Source: a virus (Duplodnaviria > Caudoviricetes). Taken from it: 37,537 nucleotides of DNA. Below are positions 3,346 to 37,498 of this stretch, in pieces; the first letter of the stretch is position 1, and each line of letters begins with the position of its first letter. A program made the translations under genes and the position numbers. The DNA lies in the IMG/VR virus record IMGVR_UViG_3300036793_000056, positions 1 to 37,537 of that record; one strand, given 5' to 3'. The notes beneath the pieces are model-generated. The model was not told where the DNA came from. It saw nothing but the letters and a program-made list of their open reading frames with translations, and ran no database searches.

Positions 3346-4209
3346 ATGGCCTCTGAGACTGCACCGAACCCGTTTGACAAGGGCACCAAAGCCCGTGAGC
3401 CAGCCCTAGACGGGGCGGCGGTGCGCGCCGCGATCAACGACCTGACGGTGCGCAAGCACGTCCCACCGGCGACGCTCAACACGTTCCACCGCAACCCGCG
3501 TAAGGGCGACGTACCGGCGATCATGGCCAGCCTCAAGGCCCATGACCAGTACAAGCCGATCGTGGTCAACATCGGCACGCACACCGGCCGCCCGCATGAG
3601 GTTTTGGCCGGTAACCACACGCTGATGGCGGTTCGTGAGCTGGCAGAGAAGTACCCCGACGACCCGCGCTGGGAGAACGTGCTGGTGCACTGGCTTGACG
3701 TCGATGACGACCGCTGTAACCGCATCGTGGCCGCCGACAACCAAACGGCCCAGCTGGGCGGGTTCGACATGGAACAGCTGGCCGGGCTGCTGGAAGATAT
3801 CGGCGAGGTCAACCTGGGCGATATCGGATTCAGCGACGACGACCTGGCCGATATCAAGGCCAAACTGGAAGAAAACGCCCTCAATCTGCCGCCCCGGCCC
3901 GAAGGGCTGCACGACATTTCCAACAATCCCAACACCGGCAGCGATGAGCGCCACGGCAGCTATGAGCAGACCGGCACCCGCGCGATGATCTTGACGCTGC
4001 CGATCGCCCAGTTTGTCTGGGTGCAAGAGCAGCTGACCGCTCTGCGCGAGGAGTATGCAGTCGACAACAACGTCGACATGGTGCTGCACCTGGTCGCCGA
4101 CGCCAGTGAAACCGAAGTTCCGGCCGCCGACGCTGAGGTCAGCGCCGACGCGATCGACCAGGCCGACAACCAAGCCGCCAACGGTGCGGCCGACCCCGAG
4201 GCGGAATGA
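3346..4209 (+). CDS. ParB/Srx-like N-terminal domain protein
   Basis: NPRKGD...I.ASL...QYKPIVVN...VLAGNHT..A...IVAADN is the phage ParBc-type pattern. Acidic C-terminus. Confidence 0.85.
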   Translation: MASETAPNPFDKGTKAREPALDGAAVRAAINDLTVRKHVPPATLNTFHRNPRKGDVPAIMASLKAHDQYKPIVVNIGTHTGRPHEVLAGNHTLMAVRELAEKYPDDPRWENVLVHWLDVDDDRCNRIVAADNQTAQLGGFDMEQLAGLLEDIGEVNLGDIGFSDDDLADIKAKLEENALNLPPRPEGLHDISNNPNTGSDERHGSYEQTGTRAMILTLPIAQFVWVQEQLTALREEYAVDNNVDMVLHLVADASETEVPAADAEVSADAIDQADNQAANGAADPEAE

Positions 4210-5051
4210 TGACCATTGTGTGGCGCACTCTCACTGCCCTGCTGATGCTGTTGACCTTTGGGCCGTGGCACATCGCACCGGCGCACGCCGACACCCCGAT
4301 GACCTACACCGTTGAGCCGTTCGATTTCGACGGTGCGGGCATGACGATGACCGTCACGCAGTTGCAGTTCAACGGCAAGATGTGCCCCTGCACCAAGATC
4401 GCCTACCCGGCCGATGGCCTGCACAACCAGCAAGGCGCTGACGCCATCTGGAAGGCCGTACAACAGGGCATCATCAAACCCGGCGACACGCTGATGGGTT
4501 TCAGCCTGGGAGTGCAGGTGATTTCGTTGTTCCTGTCCCAGCACAGCCTGCCCGCCGGTGTACACGTCGTGCTGGCGGGTGACACCGAGGCCCGCAACAC
4601 CGCGCTGGTCAACGCGCACCAGGGCATTCCGGTCGACATTGCCAACGACGTGCTTGCCGTCGTGAACGAGTACGACGGTTGGTCTGACGCCCCGGTCAAC
4701 ACCACCGCGCCCGGCTACAGCCTGGCGTGGATCACCGCCGGGATGGGCACCCAGCTGTTGCACTACTACCGCAACGCCGACCCGTCTGATCCGGCCAATG
4801 TGCGCTACACCAAAGGCAACATCACCTACGTGCTGATCCCGACCGTGCATCTGCCGCAGTATGCCTACCTGCGCGCGGTCGGCCTGGCCCCCACGCAGGC
4901 TCAAGAGGACGCCCAGCGCGTGCAGATCAACACTGCCTACAACCGGCCCGGCTCAGGCATTCCGCAGCGCGCGGCGGCGGCCAGCCAGCAAGTGCCGTTC
5001 CCGCCGCCCGCGTGGGTCAACGGACCTGAGCCCGCAGCGGCGATCAGGTGA
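4206..5051 (+). CDS. Secreted PE-PPE-type alpha/beta serine hydrolase (cutinase/esterase-like)
   Basis: Signal peptide ending AHA-D. GFSLG nucleophile elbow, EYDGWSDAP Asp motif, LLHYY His, and ITYVLIPT..LP as in PE-PPE domains. Confidence 0.8.
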   Translation: MMTIVWRTLTALLMLLTFGPWHIAPAHADTPMTYTVEPFDFDGAGMTMTVTQLQFNGKMCPCTKIAYPADGLHNQQGADAIWKAVQQGIIKPGDTLMGFSLGVQVISLFLSQHSLPAGVHVVLAGDTEARNTALVNAHQGIPVDIANDVLAVVNEYDGWSDAPVNTTAPGYSLAWITAGMGTQLLHYYRNADPSDPANVRYTKGNITYVLIPTVHLPQYAYLRAVGLAPTQAQEDAQRVQINTAYNRPGSGIPQRAAAASQQVPFPPPAWVNGPEPAAAIR

Positions 5052-6853: not shown

Positions 6854-6859
6854 TAACCT
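6854..6859 (+). promoter_or_regulatory. -10 box TAACCT, leaderless terminase transcript
   Basis: 6 nt upstream of ATG 6866, no SD. Confidence 0.65.
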
Positions 6860-14994: not shown

Positions 14995-17067
14995 GTGCGA
15001 TTCCAACTGCCTGAGCAGCTGCCCGAAACCGTAGCTGAGCTTGACGTGCTACGTGGTCAGGCCCGCGCTCAGATCAACGTCATTCAGGCCCGCCACGCTG
15101 CTGGCGAGACTTTGACACCCGACGACGCGGCTGAGCTGCGTCGGCTGCTTGAGGCTGACGACACCATCACCGCCGCCCGCGACGAGGCCGCCACGGCTGA
15201 GGCCGCGCACGCCGATGAGCTGAATGAACTGCTCAATCGCGTGCCCAGTGCCGACACCGACCAGGCCGACGACGACACCGACGCCGACGCGCAGGAGGGC
15301 GGCGAGGCTGCCGACCAGGCTGACGACGACGCTGGTGACGCCGATGCAGGCGACGGCAGTGCTGACGCCGATCAGGCCGACTCGCTGGCCGCCGGTGCGG
15401 GCAAACGCCCGGTGAGTTTTGGGGGCACCGGCAACGGTGACGCCCCTCAAGACACCGGCCCCGGCTGGCTCATGGCCCCCGGTACACCGGGGTTCAAGCC
15501 CGGCAAGGTCGGCTTCAAAGACCTGGGCCTGGCGATCGACAGCGTGCGACCCAAGAGCCTGGCGTCACGGCGGCCTAACCGTTCGCCGATGGTGCGCGAC
15601 AACGTGAGCTATGACCGCCAGGTCGTGGCCACCCTTGGCCGTGAGGTCGAGCTGATCGAAGACAGCCACGCGCTGGTCGCCGCGATCGAAAAGGCCACCA
15701 CCGAACTCAACGGTGAGCCAGTCACCGCGCAAGCCCTGACGGCCGCCGGTGGCTGGTGCGCACCGTCTGAGCAGCTGTACGACTTCTGCGACGTGCCCGA
15801 CGCGACCGACCTGGTGTCGTTGCCGGAAATCACGATCAACCGTGGCGGCATCCGCTGGCCGGTCGAGCCTGACCTGAGCAGCATCTTTGAGTCGTTCCAG
15901 TTCTTTTTCACTGAGGTCGACCTTGAGGCTGAGGACGGCGGGGGTAACCCGACGGCGATCAAGCAATGCGTCAGCATCCCCTGCCCCGACGAGTTCGATG
16001 AAATCCGGCTCAACGCGGTCGGTTACTGCGTCGAGGCTGGCATTTTGCAGACGCAGGGCTGGCCTGAGCTGATCACTTGGTTCATGCAGCACTTGACGCA
16101 GGAGCACTTGCGCGCCATCAGCCGCCGCACGATCTTGGACGTGGTAAACGGGTCTGGTGCGCCGATCGTGACGCCCCCGGCCAGCGTCATGGGGTCGGTG
16201 GCATCGGTACTTAACAGCCTTGACCTCAACGCGACCAACATTCGGCTGCGTCGTGGTCTGAGCCGTACCGCCACCATTGAGGGCATCGCGCCGTCGTGGT
16301 TCCCGGCGGTGCTGCGGGCTGACCTGGCCTACCGCGACGGCAAGGACGCGCTCAACACCACCGACGCCGAGGTCAACGCCTGGCTGACGGCCCGCAACAT
16401 TGCGTTGCAGTACGTCGGTGACTGGCAGACCCGCGACCCCGGCTACCCCGGCGCGCTCGACACGCTGGCGTGGCCTGCATCGGTCGACGTGGTGCTCTAC
16501 CCGGCGGGCACATGGTTCCGTTCCATGTCGCCGGTGATTGAGCTGGGCGTTTTCTACCCGAAAGAGCAGTTGCAGGTCAACCGCTACACCCGGTTCTTCA
16601 CTGAGGACGCCATCGCCGTCGGCCGTCGCTGCAACGTCAGCGTCGTGTCGCGCATCCCGCTGGCCGTCACTGGTGCGATCGGGCCGCGTATCGACCTGAC
16701 CAGCTACTACACCACGGCGCGCAGCACGCTGACGATCGGCGATCAGGAAACTGAGGTTCCGATCACCACAGCGGGCAGCCAGACCAACGTGCCGGTGACC
16801 AAGACGCTGGCGACCAGTGGCACCCCGACTGCGGGCACCGTCGACATTCACGTCGGCACCCTGACCGCAACCGGCGTGGCATGGAACGCCAACGCCGCAA
16901 CGGTCAAGGCCGCGATCGTGGCTCTGGACACCGGGTTCGGTGCGAACGACTTCACCGTCACCGGCGGCCCGTTGTCGACCGCACCGTTGCAGATCACGTT
17001 GCCGCAGGAGGCTGGCGCTCTGAGCGTCACGCCGCACCTGACCGGCGGCAGCGCGACTGTCTCGTAA
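14995..17067 (+). CDS. Major capsid (hexamer) protein with N-terminal scaffold region and C-terminal extension
   Basis: AGGAG SD. Acidic/coiled N-terminus, then ALTAAGGWCAPSEQLYDFC, typical of cluster B capsid proteins. Confidence 0.92.
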   Translation: MRFQLPEQLPETVAELDVLRGQARAQINVIQARHAAGETLTPDDAAELRRLLEADDTITAARDEAATAEAAHADELNELLNRVPSADTDQADDDTDADAQEGGEAADQADDDAGDADAGDGSADADQADSLAAGAGKRPVSFGGTGNGDAPQDTGPGWLMAPGTPGFKPGKVGFKDLGLAIDSVRPKSLASRRPNRSPMVRDNVSYDRQVVATLGREVELIEDSHALVAAIEKATTELNGEPVTAQALTAAGGWCAPSEQLYDFCDVPDATDLVSLPEITINRGGIRWPVEPDLSSIFESFQFFFTEVDLEAEDGGGNPTAIKQCVSIPCPDEFDEIRLNAVGYCVEAGILQTQGWPELITWFMQHLTQEHLRAISRRTILDVVNGSGAPIVTPPASVMGSVASVLNSLDLNATNIRLRRGLSRTATIEGIAPSWFPAVLRADLAYRDGKDALNTTDAEVNAWLTARNIALQYVGDWQTRDPGYPGALDTLAWPASVDVVLYPAGTWFRSMSPVIELGVFYPKEQLQVNRYTRFFTEDAIAVGRRCNVSVVSRIPLAVTGAIGPRIDLTSYYTTARSTLTIGDQETEVPITTAGSQTNVPVTKTLATSGTPTAGTVDIHVGTLTATGVAWNANAATVKAAIVALDTGFGANDFTVTGGPLSTAPLQITLPQEAGALSVTPHLTGGSATVS

Positions 17068-17158: not shown

Positions 17159-18283
17159 ATGACGTCACCGCCTGGCGTTTCGCCGATCGACACCGACCTG
17201 CCCGTACTGGGCCAGGACGGCCTGTCGACGCTGACCACGCCGATGCCTCTGCCGTCGATTCCGTTCGACGCCCCGCTGGTGAGCCCGGCGCAGATCGGCC
17301 TATACCCCCTGGTCGACTGGGACGAGGCCAACGGCCCGTCACGGTTCCTAGGTGAGGGCGTCTACGTGCGGCCGTTCAACTACGGCGGCGCGGCGGCGTT
17401 TGGCATCTGGGGCGCGGCCTGGTGCGGCGACGTCGAGCAGATCACCGTGTCGGGCACCGGCGGCACCTGGACCTACACCTACGATGGCGCACCGACCGGC
17501 GCGCTGGCCAACAACATCAGCGTCGACAACCTGCAACGGGCGATCGACGCGCTGCCCAACGTCGATGACGGCCAGGTCTACGTCAGCAGCCCCGGCGCGG
17601 GTGTCTACCTGGTCAGCCACAGCATTCCCGGCACGACCAGCGTCAATGGCGCTAGCCTGACCGGCCCGGCGGCGGGGGCTAAGACTGAGCCCGTGCGCAA
17701 GCAGGGCGAGCGCCCAGAGGACGGTGACCCGTTCCCGCCGATCACCGCCTGGGGCGCTGACGAGTGTGGGCCGGGCCGCGACAGCGAGGCTGAGCAGATC
17801 GTGCGCGCTCAGCAGAACCTCAAGCTGCTGGAACCGATCGCCGTCGAGCGCGAGCTGGCCGAGCGGATGCTGGCCGACGCCGCCGCCAACAGCGCCATCG
17901 CCACCCGCAGCAGGCTGGCCAGTGGTATTGCCTACCTTGAGGGCCTGCTGGCCGAGACGGGCACCGTGGGCATCATTCACGCCAGCGCGCAGTGGGCGGC
18001 GATCGCCGCCAACCAGCAATTGCTGCCCTACCAGCAGACCGTCGGGCTGAAAACCCGCCTGGGTCACCAGTTTGCCTTTGGCGGCGGCTACGTCGACGGC
18101 CTGGGCCTGACCCTGGTCGCGACGTCGGCGGTCTACGGCTGGCGCGACACCGTGATGGTGCGCACTGCCATGTCGTCAAGCCCGTATGACAACCGGGTTA
18201 TTGCCATCGCAGAGCGTAGCGTTTGCGTTGCTTATGAGGAACTGATCGGCGCAGTCACCATTCCGTCGACCGAACTGGACTAG
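17159..18283 (+). CDS. Capsid pentamer protein (second capsid protein)
   Basis: Follows the hexamer gene. Motifs FDAPLV.P...GLY, N.GG...FG.W...WC, T.LGH...FGGGY, N....IAERS. Confidence 0.8.
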   Translation: MTSPPGVSPIDTDLPVLGQDGLSTLTTPMPLPSIPFDAPLVSPAQIGLYPLVDWDEANGPSRFLGEGVYVRPFNYGGAAAFGIWGAAWCGDVEQITVSGTGGTWTYTYDGAPTGALANNISVDNLQRAIDALPNVDDGQVYVSSPGAGVYLVSHSIPGTTSVNGASLTGPAAGAKTEPVRKQGERPEDGDPFPPITAWGADECGPGRDSEAEQIVRAQQNLKLLEPIAVERELAERMLADAAANSAIATRSRLASGIAYLEGLLAETGTVGIIHASAQWAAIAANQQLLPYQQTVGLKTRLGHQFAFGGGYVDGLGLTLVATSAVYGWRDTVMVRTAMSSSPYDNRVIAIAERSVCVAYEELIGAVTIPSTELD

Positions 18284-21053: not shown

Positions 21054-22133
21054 GTGTCCCAATACCCACTCGTATTTGGAGTGAAGTTGCGGCTGACCAA
21101 GGTGAACAGCTGCGGTCTACCGCTGGCCGGTAATGGCAACCGCATCGTCACCAAGGGCTTTGTCACCGCCAACTTCACCCCGCAGATGAAAGACGCTGCT
21201 GACCTTGACCAGAACAACGCCGAGGGCCTGATCTGCGTCACTGAGCGCACGGCCCCTCAGCGCAAGCGATGGAACATGGCGCTGGAGCTCTGCAACGTCG
21301 ACACCGGCGTGATCGCACTGCTCACCAGCTGGGAGCAGCTGCTTGACTATCTCGACAACCCAAACGGGTTCCAAGACTCTGAGTCGGTGGAATCTGAGCT
21401 GGGTGTCGCCATCGAAATCTGGACCGGCGGCAAGGCGGCCGATGACTGTCCGGCACCGACGACCGACGACATTTTCACCAACCCTGGCACCGGCAAAAAG
21501 TACGGCTACACGCTGGCCTTTGGCACCGAGTTCCAGCTGGGCAATGTCAACATCGGCGCGCAGGTGTCGACCCTGACTCTGACCGGCATCACCTTTGCCG
21601 GGCCGCAGTGGGGTCGTGGCCCGTACAACGTGGCTCAGATCGACGGCAACGGCACCGCAGGCCGGATGCTCACGCCGACCAACAACGACAGCCATCTGCG
21701 CATGTTCCGCACGCCGATCGCGCCGCCCGATGACACCCCGGCGGGCGTCCCGGCCGCACTGGCGATCGACACCTTGTTCACCGCGCCGAACTTCTACTTT
21801 GGTGGACCGGCCAACGCGGCCCCCGCCGACGTGGCACCGGAGCAAGGTTCGTCCGAGGGCTGGAATGTCAGCTTCGGTGCGGCGAGCGCCGGTACCGGCA
21901 CGCTGGTGGTCGATGGTCTACCGACCGCGCCTATCGCCTTCAACGCCAACGCGGCGGCCGTCAAGGCGGCCATCGTGGCGCTGGACGATGGGCACACCGC
22001 CAACGACGTCACCGTCACCGGCGGCCCGCTGCCCGCAGCGGTGCACGTCGCCACCGATTGGGATGCCACCGTGGAGCCCGGCACTGCGACCGGCCTCACC
22101 GGCGGCACGATCACGGTCACGCCGACCGCCTGA
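21054..22133 (+). CDS. Major tail protein with C-terminal extension
   Basis: G.KLR.TKVNSCG.P, NA.G..CV, WGRGPY motifs. Strong SD. Followed by a terminator. Confidence 0.9.
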   Translation: MSQYPLVFGVKLRLTKVNSCGLPLAGNGNRIVTKGFVTANFTPQMKDAADLDQNNAEGLICVTERTAPQRKRWNMALELCNVDTGVIALLTSWEQLLDYLDNPNGFQDSESVESELGVAIEIWTGGKAADDCPAPTTDDIFTNPGTGKKYGYTLAFGTEFQLGNVNIGAQVSTLTLTGITFAGPQWGRGPYNVAQIDGNGTAGRMLTPTNNDSHLRMFRTPIAPPDDTPAGVPAALAIDTLFTAPNFYFGGPANAAPADVAPEQGSSEGWNVSFGAASAGTGTLVVDGLPTAPIAFNANAAAVKAAIVALDDGHTANDVTVTGGPLPAAVHVATDWDATVEPGTATGLTGGTITVTPTA

Positions 22134-25060: not shown

Positions 25061-32773
<7,713 letters not shown>

Positions 32774-32780
32774 GAGGGCC

Positions 32781-34220
32781 ATGCCTTTTCGCGGGTACTT
32801 CGCCCTCAACGGCGTGGAAATTTCCAACAGCAGCCGTGTCGTCGCTCACCTGACCAAAGACGTGCCGACTGATGACTCAGTGTTCGGTCTGGCGGCCGGT
32901 GGCGATTGCAGCCAGACGCCCAACCCCGACGACCCCGGCCTGGGCCTGCTGCCGCCCAGTGAGGTCGATCTGGGTAACGGCCTGGGCACCGTCGCCAACG
33001 GCACCCGGCTCTATGACCCCGGCCTGGGCATCGTCGGCGACTGCTGGCAGCCGTCGGCGTTTTGCGGCTGCCGCGACCAGATTCAGTACGACGACAGCTG
33101 GCCCGGCTTGCAGGACTACATCGGCGACTCGCCGTACCGGGTAGAGCTGGCCCCCTGGTACAACAGCCGACTGCCGCAGAGCGGTGAGTTCGGCGGTATC
33201 TGGGTGATGGACGCCAAGGGATTCGGCCCGCTGACCGTCAACCGGGCCGTCACTGAAAACATCGGCAGCGGGGCCAGCGCCGGGCCTAACCGCGACACGT
33301 CACGCAAGCTGACGTTTGACGCGCTGCTGCTGGCCTGCACCAACGCCGGGCTTGAGTACGGCCTGCAATGGCTGGCGTGTGAGCTGCGCTCGACCATCGG
33401 CCGGGCCGACTCAGTGCTGATGTATTTCACCGCGCATCCGCAAGACACAGCCGCCAACGCCAACACGCTGGTGCGCGAGCTGCACGGCGTCGTGATGACG
33501 GGCTCGCCGACGATCACCGCCCAGAGTCAGGCTGGTAAAAAGCCCTGGCGTCAGGCTGACCTTTACCGGGTCAGCTGGGAGCTGACCGTGCTCAATCCCT
33601 ACGTGTTTTTGCCGGTCATCGACCTGGGCACCGTCAGCTGGAAGACCATTGCCGTCGAGCCGATCACCTGGGCGCACGCCCCGATGTGCGCGACGCCGCC
33701 CAGCTGCGACCCGATGCCGGTGCTATTCAGCGACACCTGCCCACCTGAGACGATCAACGTCGGCACCAATACGCCGCCGCCGGTGTGCGGCGGCTGTCTG
33801 CCGGTTTGCGCGATCGACCGCTACACCTACGCGATCCCGTCGCTCAGCGAGTACCCGGCGCAGTGCTCAGACACGGCGGCGACGGTGACCATCACCAACA
33901 ACAGCACCACCGAGTCGCTGACCGTGCAGGGCTACTGGAAGCTGTGCAACGTCGCTGAGGCGTGTGACGACGATCAGTACCCGGTGCAGATCAACGGGCT
34001 GCCCGCCCAGAGTTCGATCACCCTTGACGCCGTGAGCGGCCAATTTTGGGCCACCGTGGGCGACCACCAATACGTCGCTATGGGCATCGTGTCGACGCCC
34101 AACGGCGCGCCGTGGGTGCCACCCATCATCGACCGCACCATGTGCTGGGAGTTCGTCATAGTTGCGCCTGAGGCAGTCAACTTTAGCGTCGACATTGCGC
34201 TGGCCGATCGGGAGGCGTAA
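32781..34220 (+). CDS. Minor tail protein (distal tail-like, Cys-rich)
   Basis: GGAGG SD. First gene after the tape measure. FRGYF.LNG.EI.NSSR motif. Confidence 0.85.
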   Translation: MPFRGYFALNGVEISNSSRVVAHLTKDVPTDDSVFGLAAGGDCSQTPNPDDPGLGLLPPSEVDLGNGLGTVANGTRLYDPGLGIVGDCWQPSAFCGCRDQIQYDDSWPGLQDYIGDSPYRVELAPWYNSRLPQSGEFGGIWVMDAKGFGPLTVNRAVTENIGSGASAGPNRDTSRKLTFDALLLACTNAGLEYGLQWLACELRSTIGRADSVLMYFTAHPQDTAANANTLVRELHGVVMTGSPTITAQSQAGKKPWRQADLYRVSWELTVLNPYVFLPVIDLGTVSWKTIAVEPITWAHAPMCATPPSCDPMPVLFSDTCPPETINVGTNTPPPVCGGCLPVCAIDRYTYAIPSLSEYPAQCSDTAATVTITNNSTTESLTVQGYWKLCNVAEACDDDQYPVQINGLPAQSSITLDAVSGQFWATVGDHQYVAMGIVSTPNGAPWVPPIIDRTMCWEFVIVAPEAVNFSVDIALADREA

Positions 34221-35302
34221 TGCCGATCATCGAGCCTGACCAGATCGTGTCGGTGCACTCAGTCAAGGGCGTGCTGATGTACCAGTTCCGCGCTGAGCAG
34301 CAGACCCAGCTGCAATGGGGCCGCACGCTGCGCGACGTCAGCAAGGCCACCTTGACGGCTGGGCCGATGCTGGTCAGTGGCAAGATTCCCGATATCTACC
34401 CGTGGGCGCATTGGATGAGTGTCTGGTCGCCCGACGCCAAAAACCTGTACTGGACCGGCCCGATTCAACGATTCGTCGCCAACCGCTTCGGCACAGAGAT
34501 TGACGCCGCTGACCCGGCCGCCTACCTGGGCCGCACGCGGGTGCCCATCACCAAGTCGTGGGACGGCGTTGACCCGTGCATCCCGATGAACGAAATGTGG
34601 CGGGCACTGTGCGATCACCACGGCCTCACCGCCTACCCGATCATGCGCCGCGACCCGTGGATCGACCTGTTCACGCTCGACGTCACCACCGACTCAGAGA
34701 CGATGGACAAGACGATCAAAACCTACGAGGGCTACGGCCTGCGGTGGACGGTCATTGCCGGTGTGCCCATCATCGGCCCGATGCCGTTAGAGCCGATCGC
34801 CAGCCTGGGTGAGCAGCATTTTTTGGGCGACGGGTTGCAACTGGTGCGCGACGGCACCAACACCTACAACGACATTCTGCTCAAAGGCCCTGACGACCTG
34901 GCGCGGGCGCGCGTCGACCTGGGCGCGGGTGTCAACCTGCAAACCATCGTCACGGTCAACGACATGTTTGGCGTGTCAAACGTGCAGCGTGCGACCAGTC
35001 AGTACGTGCGCCAGGTCGGCATGATCAAGACTGATATCGACGTGCCCAACAGTGCGGCCCTGCACCCCGACGCGCCGGTGGCGCTCGACCACCTGGTGCC
35101 GTCGGCGCGGTTTGCGATTGAGGCATACGGCGTGCGGTTGCGCATGGAACTTGAGACGATCCAAGTCACGGCCACCGGCAATAACGTGCAGGTCGTGCCC
35201 ACATTCAATGAGGTACCCAACTGGACTGAGCTGGGCAAGCTGCAACAGAACGGCGGCCAGCTGTCGATGCAGGCGGGTGTCCATGAGGTCACGAGCCCGT
35301 GA
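34220..35302 (+). CDS. Minor tail protein (baseplate hub-like)
   Basis: TAATG overlap and synteny. Confidence 0.8.
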   Translation: MPIIEPDQIVSVHSVKGVLMYQFRAEQQTQLQWGRTLRDVSKATLTAGPMLVSGKIPDIYPWAHWMSVWSPDAKNLYWTGPIQRFVANRFGTEIDAADPAAYLGRTRVPITKSWDGVDPCIPMNEMWRALCDHHGLTAYPIMRRDPWIDLFTLDVTTDSETMDKTIKTYEGYGLRWTVIAGVPIIGPMPLEPIASLGEQHFLGDGLQLVRDGTNTYNDILLKGPDDLARARVDLGAGVNLQTIVTVNDMFGVSNVQRATSQYVRQVGMIKTDIDVPNSAALHPDAPVALDHLVPSARFAIEAYGVRLRMELETIQVTATGNNVQVVPTFNEVPNWTELGKLQQNGGQLSMQAGVHEVTSP

Positions 35303-35961
35303 GCGGCGTCCTGGCGGGCAAGATGCCGCGCACCGACGAGCAGTGGGCGCGCGATGTGCAGCAGCGTCTCGACCAGCTTGAGCACCCAAAGACGCAGCGC
35401 GTAGCTGACTGGGTGTTCTCCCAAGACACGACCGGCGCATTGCAGGCGACCAAGCCGGGCGCGGGGTCGGTCATCATCGACAGTGACGGCAACCTGATCA
35501 GTGCGGCGATCAGTGCAGGAGCTGTGCCGGTCACCGTCACACAGCCCTTGACCTGGCAGGCCATCTGGAACCTGTTCACCGGCAGCGCGACCAGCACCAG
35601 CACGTCAAGCTCACCGGCCAGTGAGTGGATCGCTGAGATACAGGCGTGGCTCACCGCTCAGTGGAACAAATTCCTGACGCCTGATTCGACGCAGATCACC
35701 GACCTGCAAACGGCACTTGATCAGCTGGGCCAGATTTACAACAACGAGGTCGTCGTCCCGATCACTGAGGCGGTGAGCCAGGCGCAGGCCGGGTGGAACA
35801 GTCTGCTGTTCAAGGTCGGCCTGGTGCAGTCCAATGGGTCAAACTTGGTTCTCGACCCAAGTTTCACAACGCCGACATTGTGGGCAGGCGAAGCCGGGTC
35901 GCAAACGTCGGCACAAGCACACAGCGGGATATATTGCTGGCAACTAGAAGGGCAGGGATAA
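35299..35961 (+). CDS. Minor tail protein ending in the N-terminal half of a CBM-like domain
   Basis: PRTD.QWAR.V..RL..LE N-terminus. Ends NLVLDPSF...W...AHSG...W.L.G.G-stop. Confidence 0.8.
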   Translation: MSGVLAGKMPRTDEQWARDVQQRLDQLEHPKTQRVADWVFSQDTTGALQATKPGAGSVIIDSDGNLISAAISAGAVPVTVTQPLTWQAIWNLFTGSATSTSTSSSPASEWIAEIQAWLTAQWNKFLTPDSTQITDLQTALDQLGQIYNNEVVVPITEAVSQAQAGWNSLLFKVGLVQSNGSNLVLDPSFTTPTLWAGEAGSQTSAQAHSGIYCWQLEGQG

Positions 35962-35965
35962 CGCC

Positions 35966-37219
35966 GTGGCCGTAGTGACCATGCACCTGATCAATAACGA
36001 CGTCGGTGCCCAGACCCTCAAGACACGGCCCGGTGATGTGTTCACCCTTGGGGCTTACGTCTTCCCCAAGACGGGCAACACCGGCGGCGGCACGCTCAAG
36101 CTGGTGCTGCACTGCACCAGCACCGTCGCCAGTCCACCGGCCCCGGTCGACGTGGTGGTGGCGACTGAGACGGTGCCCGCCACCGGGTCGTGGACCAACT
36201 TCACCGGCACCGGCATCATCCCGGCGGGCTACGACACGGTGGACCCACAGCTGACCCTGACCAGCGTGCCGGTCACCGACACCATCTACGTTGACGATCT
36301 GCTATGCCGTGAAACAACGGCCGCGCAAAACGTCCTTGACCAGCTCTATCAGTCGATCACCGGCACCGGCACTGCCAATAACAGCCTCGCCACACTGGGC
36401 ACGCAGGTCGCCAACTGGATAAACAAGCTGTTCGGCACGACCTCGGTGCAGAACACAATCCAGACCCCGGCCGTGCCGTCGCTCGACGCCAGCAAGATCA
36501 CCACGGGTACCTTTGCCCAGACGTTCGTGTCGGGCCTGACTAGCCTCTGGAACAGTTGGTTCGGTACCACGACCCCGACCGGCGCATCGGTGTTGAACGC
36601 CGCCAACGTGGCCAACCTTGACGCCAGCAAGATCACCACGGGTACCTTTGCTCAGAGTTTCGTGTCGGGTCTGCAATCGCTGTGGACGAGCTGGTTCGGT
36701 ACCGCGACGCCGACCGGGGCGTCGTTGCTGAATGCCGCCAACGTCGCCTCGTTGGACGCCAGCAAGATCACCACGGGTACGTTTGCCCAGAGTTTCGTCA
36801 GCGGCCTGCAATCGTTGTGGAACAGCTGGTTTGGCACGACTACGCCGACCGGCGCATCGTTGCTGAATGCGGCCAACGTCGCCTCGCTTGACGCCAGCAA
36901 GATCACCACCGGCACGTTTGCCCAGACGTTCATCACCGGCCTGACGACACTGTGGACAGGGTGGTTTGGCACGGCCACGCCGACCGGCTCGACGCAGCTT
37001 TTGCCCGCCACGGTGCCCAGCTTGGACGGTTCTAAGATCACCACGGGTAATCTGTCCTCGGCCCTCATTCCCGCCTTACTCGGACTTAGCACCGCGCCGA
37101 ACATGGTGCTTGCCCCTGACTTTGAATCCACGACATTATGGGCGGGAGCTACCGGCTCACAGAGCGCACTGCAAGCGCACTCTGGCACACATTCCTGGGC
37201 ACTGGTTGGTGCGGGATAA
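35966..37219 (+). CDS. Tail fibre-like minor tail protein: C-terminal half of a CBM-like domain, 45-aa repeats, then another N-terminal half
   Basis: Starts AVVTMHL...TRPGDVFTLGAYV...W....G...IPAGYD...IYVDD. LDASKITTGT repeats. Ends NMVLAPDF...AHSG..SW.L.G.G-stop. Confidence 0.85.
   Translation: MAVVTMHLINNDVGAQTLKTRPGDVFTLGAYVFPKTGNTGGGTLKLVLHCTSTVASPPAPVDVVVATETVPATGSWTNFTGTGIIPAGYDTVDPQLTLTSVPVTDTIYVDDLLCRETTAAQNVLDQLYQSITGTGTANNSLATLGTQVANWINKLFGTTSVQNTIQTPAVPSLDASKITTGTFAQTFVSGLTSLWNSWFGTTTPTGASVLNAANVANLDASKITTGTFAQSFVSGLQSLWTSWFGTATPTGASLLNAANVASLDASKITTGTFAQSFVSGLQSLWNSWFGTTTPTGASLLNAANVASLDASKITTGTFAQTFITGLTTLWTGWFGTATPTGSTQLLPATVPSLDGSKITTGNLSSALIPALLGLSTAPNMVLAPDFESTTLWAGATGSQSALQAHSGTHSWALVGAG
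36479..37050 (+). repeat. 135-bp (45-aa) in-frame tandem repeat, four full copies plus a partial fifth
   Basis: The Asp codon of LD(A/G)SKITTG recurs at 36485, 36620, 36755, 36890 and 37025. Confidence 0.95.
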
Positions 37220-37240
37220 CAGATAAGGGAGAATGGAAAA

Positions 37241-37498
37241 TTGAGCGAAATCTTCGTCTCGCCCGATCGCAAGTCGGTAGCGATCAAGACCGGCGACCCT
37301 CGCCCCGCGTTTGCTTACGGGGTAATGACCAGCGACAACGGCGGTCATCACTCGGCTGCTGAAGCCCTCGCAGGCTGGGCACCGCTTGACGTGCCCGCCC
37401 CTGAGCCTGAGCCGCAGTGCCGGGTGCTGTCGCGTCGCCAACCGGGTTTGAGCCCGCCAACCCCGAATTGGATTCTGCTCACTAGAGCGACCAGCTAG
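37241..37498 (+). CDS. Hypothetical protein, 85 aa
   Basis: TTG start with GGGAG upstream. SPD..SVAIKT...Y.VMT..NGGH motif. Confidence 0.6.
   Translation: MSEIFVSPDRKSVAIKTGDPRPAFAYGVMTSDNGGHHSAAEALAGWAPLDVPAPEPEPQCRVLSRRQPGLSPPTPNWILLTRATS

Follow-up and report, generated by a model that had tools for sequence, protein, structure and literature searches.

In the virus record IMGVR_UViG_3300036793_000056 (Duplodnaviria; Caudoviricetes), a soil phage contig of 37,537 nucleotides (nt) that was analysed over its full length and is called the window here, the central tail fibre appears to be encoded in pieces. Two adjacent genes, A and B, are separated by a break inside a single beta-sandwich domain that resembles carbohydrate-binding modules (CBMs): A stops after the first ~40 residues of this domain (the plug), B starts with the rear ~115 residues (the socket, or head) and ends with a second copy of the plug, which stops at the identical residue. 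The same break recurs in relatives, which comprise anchors that end in a plug, links that carry both a socket and a plug, and tips that begin with a socket, and intact one-gene equivalents exist as well. We propose that a central fibre gene was cut twice at one residue within the CBM-like domain, and that the separate pieces would join end to end, each C-terminal plug completing the socket with which the following piece begins. The parts of the two genes are as follows.

35299 to 35961, plus strand: gene A, putative anchor segment of the central tail fibre, 220 amino acids (aa), GTG start, ending in a plug.
35299 to 35490, plus strand: residues 1-64 of A, predicted trimeric stalk plugging the baseplate hub, by homology to cluster B5 gp30.
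35842 to 35958, plus strand: plug of A, comprising the N-terminal segment and two strands (~40 residues) with which the CBM-like sandwich begins; G+C at third codon positions (GC3) 20/37.
35954 to 35968, plus strand: A/B junction, with a Shine-Dalgarno-like AGGGA overlapping the last codon of A, TAA, a 4-nt gap and the GTG of B.
35966 to 37219, plus strand: gene B, putative two-ended link, 417 aa, GTG start, consisting of socket, stem repeats and plug.
35966 to 36319, plus strand: socket (head) of B, the ~115 residues that make up the rear part of the jelly-roll; predicted local distance difference test score (pLDDT) of the model ~56-87 per block.
36482 to 37048, plus strand: stem of B, five LD[AG]SKITTG motifs with a 45-residue period.
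37100 to 37216, plus strand: plug of B, in which the front ~40 residues occur a second time; GC3 18/36.

Gene A ends in NLVLDPSF...WQLEGQG and a stop, and gene B starts with (M)AVVTMHLINN and ends in NMVLAPDFE...WALVGAG and a stop. The frame of B is +1 relative to that of A, and the gap between the A stop and the B start reads CGCC. An earlier interpretation made from the sequence alone (the sequence-only reading) had held that the two 39-residue ends are homologous, stop at the same residue and share their context, and this is borne out, since 22 of the 39 residues are identical and GGGATAAC has only two occurrences in the window, at 35955 and 37213, i.e. at the stops of A and B. At the DNA level the ends are identical at 27/39, 27/39 and 17/39 of codon positions 1, 2 and 3, respectively, and this concentration of divergence at third positions indicates that the plugs are old, diverged copies. 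GGGATAAC is made up of the final GGA codon, TAA and one further base, and at A its GGGA also lies within the AGGGA located 7 nt 5' of the GTG of B; its presence at both stops requires no special signal. A role of GGGATAAC as a recombination site was rejected, because the stop lies inside it and recombination would not fuse the frames, and an intron at the junction was rejected given the gap of only 4 nt; introns reportedly occur in cluster J tail genes. A six-frame profile search found no third head or tail half anywhere in the window, and the sequence of gene B looks like a single unit of a repetitive multi-domain fibre, taken in permuted phase. The GC3 values of both plug-coding segments are among the lowest of 1,562 sequence windows, compared to 0.81 for 15 structural genes, and the plug-equivalent segment of three intact domains is not markedly low in GC3. 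Possible reasons for the low value are import of the segment, unstructured RNA ahead of a start codon, or a slowing of decoding.

A protein search with B returned 14 proteins, namely B itself, six links, two head-only proteins, three proteins with an intact domain and two that share only the stem motif. The six links (P0002-P0006 and P0008; 316-446 aa, with P0003 and P0005 being near copies) share both start and stop with B. A profile-wide search gave 286 matches, the best 150 of which were examined, and together with cluster look-ups this added a seventh link (P0162), five head-only tips (P0015, P0019, P0054, P0056 and P0059), bringing the tips to seven, and a tail-only anchor of another family (P0108). 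The search with A gave two orthologues, P0160 and P0161, both ending in IYCWQL.GQG at the last residue of A. Counting the window, four anchors and eight links have the identical stop. In an alignment to the intact-domain profile, the 11 tail ends compared all stop at position 40-41, and the heads of links and tips begin at position 43-44; the collection's own call of window B starts at a downstream ATG, which corresponds to profile position 46. Four other proteins begin mid-domain elsewhere (P0034, P0097, P0098 and P0138), and the P0162 cluster includes two short fragments, P0046 and P0163. Mean conservation among six links (P0005 was left out as a near copy) is 76% for the plug, 74% for the head and 46% for the stem, the repeat number and repeat unit of which vary. 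The profile matched 111 of 161 proteins, of which 22 lack a whole domain, 42 have one and 47 have 2-15 in one chain. In P0047, P0017 and P0071, the fibre is encoded by a single gene (3,100-3,800 aa) and contains 11-15 CBM-like domains in tandem. Among cultured phages there was no tblastn match to B at 1e-3; the intact domain gave 97 weak matches, and all 40 that were examined lie under single annotated genes.

The sequence-only reading had argued that a break point shared by two diverged copies is no random nonsense mutation or sequencing error, and the recurrence of the break at the same residue in three other anchors and seven other links upholds this. An assembly or sequencing error, or a decaying gene, might be suspected because the contig is from an uncultured virus, and because the fibre is encoded by one gene in the cultured cluster B phages compared and in a closer relative, L008, whose one-gene fibre does not contain this domain. 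However, the identical break is present in the JGI, Logan, NCBI and ENA records, and the sequence of the plug is conserved. Run X1, which may derive from the sample that the window itself came from, yielded a Logan contig with 0 differences over 35686-36286, so that a second assembly reproduces the A/B break; the identical break in independent relatives is a stronger test than a second assembly. The probability of error or decay is therefore negligible in our view. Relatives that keep the split, which the sequence-only reading had proposed to look for, exist in the form of these anchors and links, next to the intact one-gene versions.

Gene B has features expected of a separately translated gene. 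The duplex of the AGGGA upstream of its GTG with the anti-Shine-Dalgarno sequence amounts to -7.1 kcal/mol, whereas the ATG further downstream reaches -1.5. In its JGI record, A retains V for its GTG start, and six JGI heads (P0002, P0008, P0009, P0015, P0046 and P0162) begin with M at the position of the GTG of B; compared to the GTG in the window, this points to the ATG/GTG interchange that is expected of a start codon, as far as protein records tell. A programmed +1 recoding event at GGA-UAA-C would fuse A and B, and no trans joint would then be required between them. The frame of B is indeed open upstream of its GTG (R-D-N-A-V-A-V...), G-N is often found at this loop in intact domains, GGA is the rarest glycine codon (2.7%) and rare codons are abundant in both plugs. 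Moreover, AGGG is located 3 nt 5' of GGA, an arrangement that we take to be loosely like release factor 2 (RF2) sites. However, a shift from GGA to GAU re-pairs poorly, the -1 frame stops within 5 codons, and no frame past the B stop encodes a head, yet the link plugs are conserved as much as the heads. The Shine-Dalgarno sequence 7 nt before B and the implied start codon interchange argue in the same direction. Neither a re-pairing nor a landing codon leading into the downstream domain, as in frameshifting or bypassing, was found at the junction, and the RNA structure there is nothing unusual (z 0.32). Recoding at A/B is thus unlikely.

The nature of the interrupted domain follows from an intact relative, L002 (L002:10016-10519), for which a model with a pLDDT of 90 was obtained. 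The loop equivalent to the break reads GAG-SGN-TTTLRLIN in this protein and lies between strands 38-42 and 49-53, the second and third of the model, in agreement with the earlier claim that one CBM-like beta-sandwich is split across A and B. Compared with CBM16, with CBM22 and with residues 162-325 of Douge gp20, the L002 model gives Z 14.6-15.2 and root-mean-square deviations (rmsd) of 2.7-3.1 (for Douge gp20, Z 14.6, rmsd 3.1, 158 residues aligned). The CBM16, CBM22 and CBM4 modules (PDB 2ZEW, 4XUP and 1GUI; Foldseek E 4e-8, Z ~15) have the same fold as the rebuilt domain, at 15-21% identity, and differ from the split domain in that natural CBMs are single chains. For the head of B itself, the best Foldseek match is the Douge central fibre gp20 (E 1e-5), and the match of B in the ESM Atlas is below 0.9. 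Pfam CBM_4_9 (PF02018) gave no match for A, B, the B head or the L002 domain, and among the relatives only P0012 passes. The intact relative and its model support a jelly-roll beta-sandwich as the predicted fold of the split domain.

Residues 1-64 of A show 45-46% identity to gp30 of the cluster B5 phage Phelemich, and gene A is located directly 3' of the hub-like gene, which agrees with the assignment of A as an anchor in the sequence-only reading. In the B5 phage Mysterious, gp30 is a trimeric central fibre, residues 1-64 of which form a trimeric stalk in the hub (PMC13252515), and the fibre of Douge is a 38.8-nm trimer composed of an N-arm, a CBM-fold domain (165-321), a stem, a tip and a C-terminal domain (PMC13033339). 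These matches indicate that A corresponds to the arm plus a plug, that a tip protein corresponds to a socket, stem and tip domain, and that B, which has a plug as well as a socket, is an inserted unit. The pieces would be homotrimers, by analogy with Douge and Mysterious only. Fibre-tip PHROGs 737/746 were matched by four of the six tips scanned (P0019 was left out). The gene at the fibre position of Onyinye and PLot-type phages is matched by P0108, and residues 2-510 of P0108 align with residues 19-494 of a one-gene fibre in L003, with which tip heads align from 497. The same plug occurs on two unrelated anchor families (cluster-B-type A and Onyinye/PLot-type P0108), indicating that the module has moved between tail types. 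P0138 is a divergent stand-alone socket of 139 aa that starts with MSVLTLHL and ends at the domain end (largest contig 33,586 nt), and by its sequence is a candidate chain stopper; in the ESM Atlas it matches clusters of 127-135 aa at 0.93-0.94, one with 18% CBM_4_9. Two tips carry an inserted LamG/ConA-like domain, P0059 within its socket and P0015 within its stem.

Several results bear on whether plug and socket fit together. Of the 45 pairs that covary most strongly across 258 intact domains, 15 link the plug to the socket. A structural Ca2+ site is known for CBM modules, and calcium was included, unscored, in a complex prediction of the B tail (372-417) with the B head (1-125). The prediction scored 0.91, versus 0.00 for the best of three controls, with a contact agreement between runs of at least 89% and a partner pLDDT of at least 89, and it pairs the donated strand 410-415 with the last head strand 105-110. 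The mark used was reached by 116/157 solved and 2/215 mismatched pairs, although these counts apply to the present case only as an approximation. Pairs made from one split gene tend to pass because they resemble solved folds, so the prediction shows compatibility rather than binding. The proposal that the tail of B completes the head of B is thus backed by the model, and a joint by fold completion between separately made pieces is highly probable.

As to how the pieces are arranged, we favour an ordered anchor-link-tip fibre, usually with one link, although the chance we give it falls slightly short of even. In a tree of the heads, link heads (7) and tip heads (6) form separate groups, with supports of 98/94 and 92/92; P0059, whose head is interrupted by the LamG domain, was left out. 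The link plugs differ from all four anchor plugs at positions 385, 387-389 and 409, two of which are in the predicted interface, and D385/E387 is present in 7/7 link tails compared and in 0/4 anchors. In addition, links tune their stem length within the gene by repeat number (316-446 aa). With separate head subfamilies and these differences between link and anchor tails, a fixed anchor-link-tip fibre fits about as well as an open polymer.

A number of observations weigh against the fibre proposed here. Link and tip heads are separated by 0/38 interface positions versus 13/80 elsewhere (Fisher p 0.009, a value inflated by relatedness and by general interface conservation), and the window contains no tip gene. 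The pass in the complex prediction may come from likeness to solved CBM folds, and a full-length monomer model of B leaves the tail undocked (pLDDT <50; shallow 7-row alignment). The split proteins all come from metagenome-type collections, mostly with one contig each. In viral contigs, searches with single proteins brought up no DNA of a split relative, an alignment search yielded three loci, all with the domain intact and no split-relative DNA, DNA-pattern searches for split relatives gave 0 matches, a search for the P0108 locus gave none, and a further search gave two loci, both without the domain. The metagenome contigs contained one locus with an intact domain and no split relative, and the search for split relatives in genome contigs also gave none. 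Co-occurrence of link and tip (P0006/P0059) and of anchor and link (P0108/P0002) is suggested solely by their equal largest-contig sizes of 24,447 nt and 7,054 nt, respectively.

The contrast between interface and other positions would also be explained if the joint were generic, so that the plug of B also fits the socket of B and the fibre is anchor-(B)n-tip, beaded and of variable length, with n set by the supply of B relative to tip. This is quite possible, if less than an even prospect. The B-tail/B-head pair passes the complex prediction, but such predictions cannot separate close cousins (10/12 colicin cousins pass). Besides the 0/38 interface positions, 0/14 covariation-coupled socket positions separate link from tip heads, and the differences between these heads include an intra-head covarying patch outside the interface; however, interface residues are conserved anyway and the sequences are related, which makes the contrast weak. 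The plug of P0108 groups weakly with link plugs (87/89, 43 columns, with too few columns in the tail tree to resolve classes), but its identity to link plugs (59%) hardly differs from that to A-type plugs (57%). A chain of B would reproduce the architecture of the 47/111 matching proteins that carry 2-15 whole domains per chain. On the other hand, high expression of B is not indicated, a chaperone was not identified, and solved tail tips as a rule have a fixed stoichiometry. That B is in fact a self-polymerising subunit, with trimeric links that rebuild a CBM domain at each joint and chain between a hub-bound anchor and an exchangeable tip into a pilus-like polymer of variable length, is possible, though less likely than not. 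In that case, a gene of 417 residues would build the long multi-CBM fibres that relatives encode in genes of 1,500-3,800 residues. The self-chaining proposed in the sequence-only reading therefore stands in part, as the B tail is predicted to fit the B head, whereas a fixed fibre fits about as well as an open head-to-tail polymer. The head-only cap genes that it envisaged are likewise present in relatives, with seven tip proteins, but not downstream of B within the window.

The fit of the B tail to the B head in the model, and the window without a tip gene after B, would also agree with a circularly permuted B that closes on itself, or with a plug that is unpaired or blocked by a tiny stopper such as the 139-aa head-only protein P0138, in which case nothing would be chained beyond B. 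This seems improbable, since it leaves the conserved plug of A without a partner, seven full tip proteins begin with a socket, homologous stems form a straight trimer in Douge (PMC13033339), and P0138 is on a long branch of uncertain place.

In the ordered anchor-link-tip fibre, A would trimerise and plug the baseplate hub like cluster B5 gp30, and B would be translated from its own GTG by coupling to the A stop. Three A plugs would occupy three B sockets, rebuilding a domain equivalent to Douge gp20 165-321, and the stem of B would add ~18 nm (in proportion to the 878 aa and 38.8 nm of Douge). The plugs of B would then accept a tip protein encoded past the contig end, which would carry the receptor-binding end. 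In such a fibre with usually one link, spacer length and tip would be separately exchangeable modules. Receptor-binding fibres determine phage host range, and each central fibre known from actinophages is one long trimer. With a natural plug-and-socket cut, the anchor, the spacer and the tip could each be exchanged without the others. Were links to chain, the expression ratio and not gene length would govern how long the fibre is. The pair of ~40 and ~115 residues would represent a naturally evolved split-domain tag, with a predicted joint.

The closest counterparts in overall design are Douge gp20 (PDB 8ZDO/8ZDP; PMC13033339) and Mysterious gp30 (PMC13252515), the genes of which, like A/B, follow the distal-tail and hub genes. 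The order of arm, CBM, stem and tip is retained across the split pieces, but Douge gp20 and Mysterious gp30 are single polypeptides of 753-878 aa, whereas here the chain is cut twice inside the CBM domain and the tip is a separate gene. A/B share with actinophage central fibres the gene position, the hub-anchoring N-terminus and the CBM-fold domain after the arm, and lack one polypeptide that runs from hub anchor to tip, since A and B are split and the tips of relatives are separate. The protein would work like a central fibre but is not canonical, as it is not a single chain. The nearest solved precedent for the joint is BppU-BppA of Tuc2009, in which a C-terminal 25-residue beta-hairpin of BppU completes the beta-sheet of BppA to give one composite domain (PMC4742702). 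As is predicted here, a C-terminal extension completes the sheet of a partner tail protein. However, the composite domain is titin- or immunoglobulin-like, compared to the jelly-roll CBM fold here, and the joint is one-ended, attaches an accessory to the periphery of the baseplate and lies off the fibre axis; there is no subunit with both plug and socket, unlike B. Fold completion between phage tail proteins is therefore already known, and the joint proposed here would be a further form of it.

Chaperone-usher pili (Fim, Pap) are also built from subunits with an incomplete fold that receive a donated piece, and have anchor, repeating and tip subunits. They have an immunoglobulin fold, a single N-terminal donor strand, a periplasmic chaperone and an usher, and monomeric subunits. 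In contrast, the head of B is a predicted jelly-roll that lacks its first ~40 residues, rather than an immunoglobulin-like pilin without its last strand, with a C-terminal plug of ~40 residues, presumed trimers, cytoplasmic assembly and no chaperone identified. The comparison to pilus donor-strand complementation made in the sequence-only reading is thus an analogy and no more. In the open-access literature, we found no phage fibre described as having a split CBM joint or a two-ended link, and none whose length is set by expression ratio rather than by gene length. A paper pairing 'donor strand' with 'tail fiber' (10.64898/2026.09.13.751334) concerns host fimbriae.

The window carries the virion module of a cluster-B-like actinophage, with terminase, portal, capsid, tail tube and tape measure genes, the last of which is followed by two minor tail genes (479 aa and 360 aa). 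The features that flank A and B are the following.

32781 to 35302, plus strand: two genes of a cluster-B-type tail, one distal-tail-like (479 aa) and one baseplate-hub-like (360 aa), matching PHROGs 838 and 837.
37241 to 37498, plus strand: gene C, small conserved open reading frame after the fibre, not a head half, C-terminus uncertain; 33% identity over 51 residues.

The hub-like gene shows 45-48% identity to its best cultured Mycobacterium phage matches, and the sizes of both minor tail genes match those of Mysterious gp28 (477 aa) and gp29 (362 aa) (PMC13252515). The contig ends 318 nt past the B stop. The counterpart of gene C is the open reading frame after the intact fibre in L001, to which the above identity refers. 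B and C share one frame across a single TAA (window 37217-37243), and a second-study contig (X2, 36995-37537, 13 differences) has extra bases after 37239 and 37413, so that the annotated C-terminus of gene C may be wrong.

Elsewhere in the window, a sigma-70-like site at 35908-35935 is no more than expected by chance (1 found, 0.5 expected). The pattern TAACCT-N6-start codon occurs on the plus strand at 6854, 10120, 22206 and 25061 (4 observed versus 0.13 expected), directly 5' of the terminase, portal, head-tail adaptor and tape measure genes, and these sites are likely -10 boxes of leaderless transcripts. The tape measure gene (25073-32773) is very long, with 2,566 aa compared to 1,997-2,070 aa in Mysterious and LilMcDreamy. 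A gene at 5048-5944 matches Tet/JBP-like 2-oxoglutarate-Fe(II) oxygenases (E 1.4e-6, under the Pfam cut-off) and adjoins a PE-PPE-domain gene (4206-5051) beside the lysis region; it is a possible DNA-modification gene. Finally, a segment of ~90-110 residues is common to the capsid gene (14995-17067), the next gene (17159-18283) and the tail tube gene (21054-22133). It matches PHROG 10909 and the C-terminus of PHROG 792, and likely represents immunoglobulin-like decorations.

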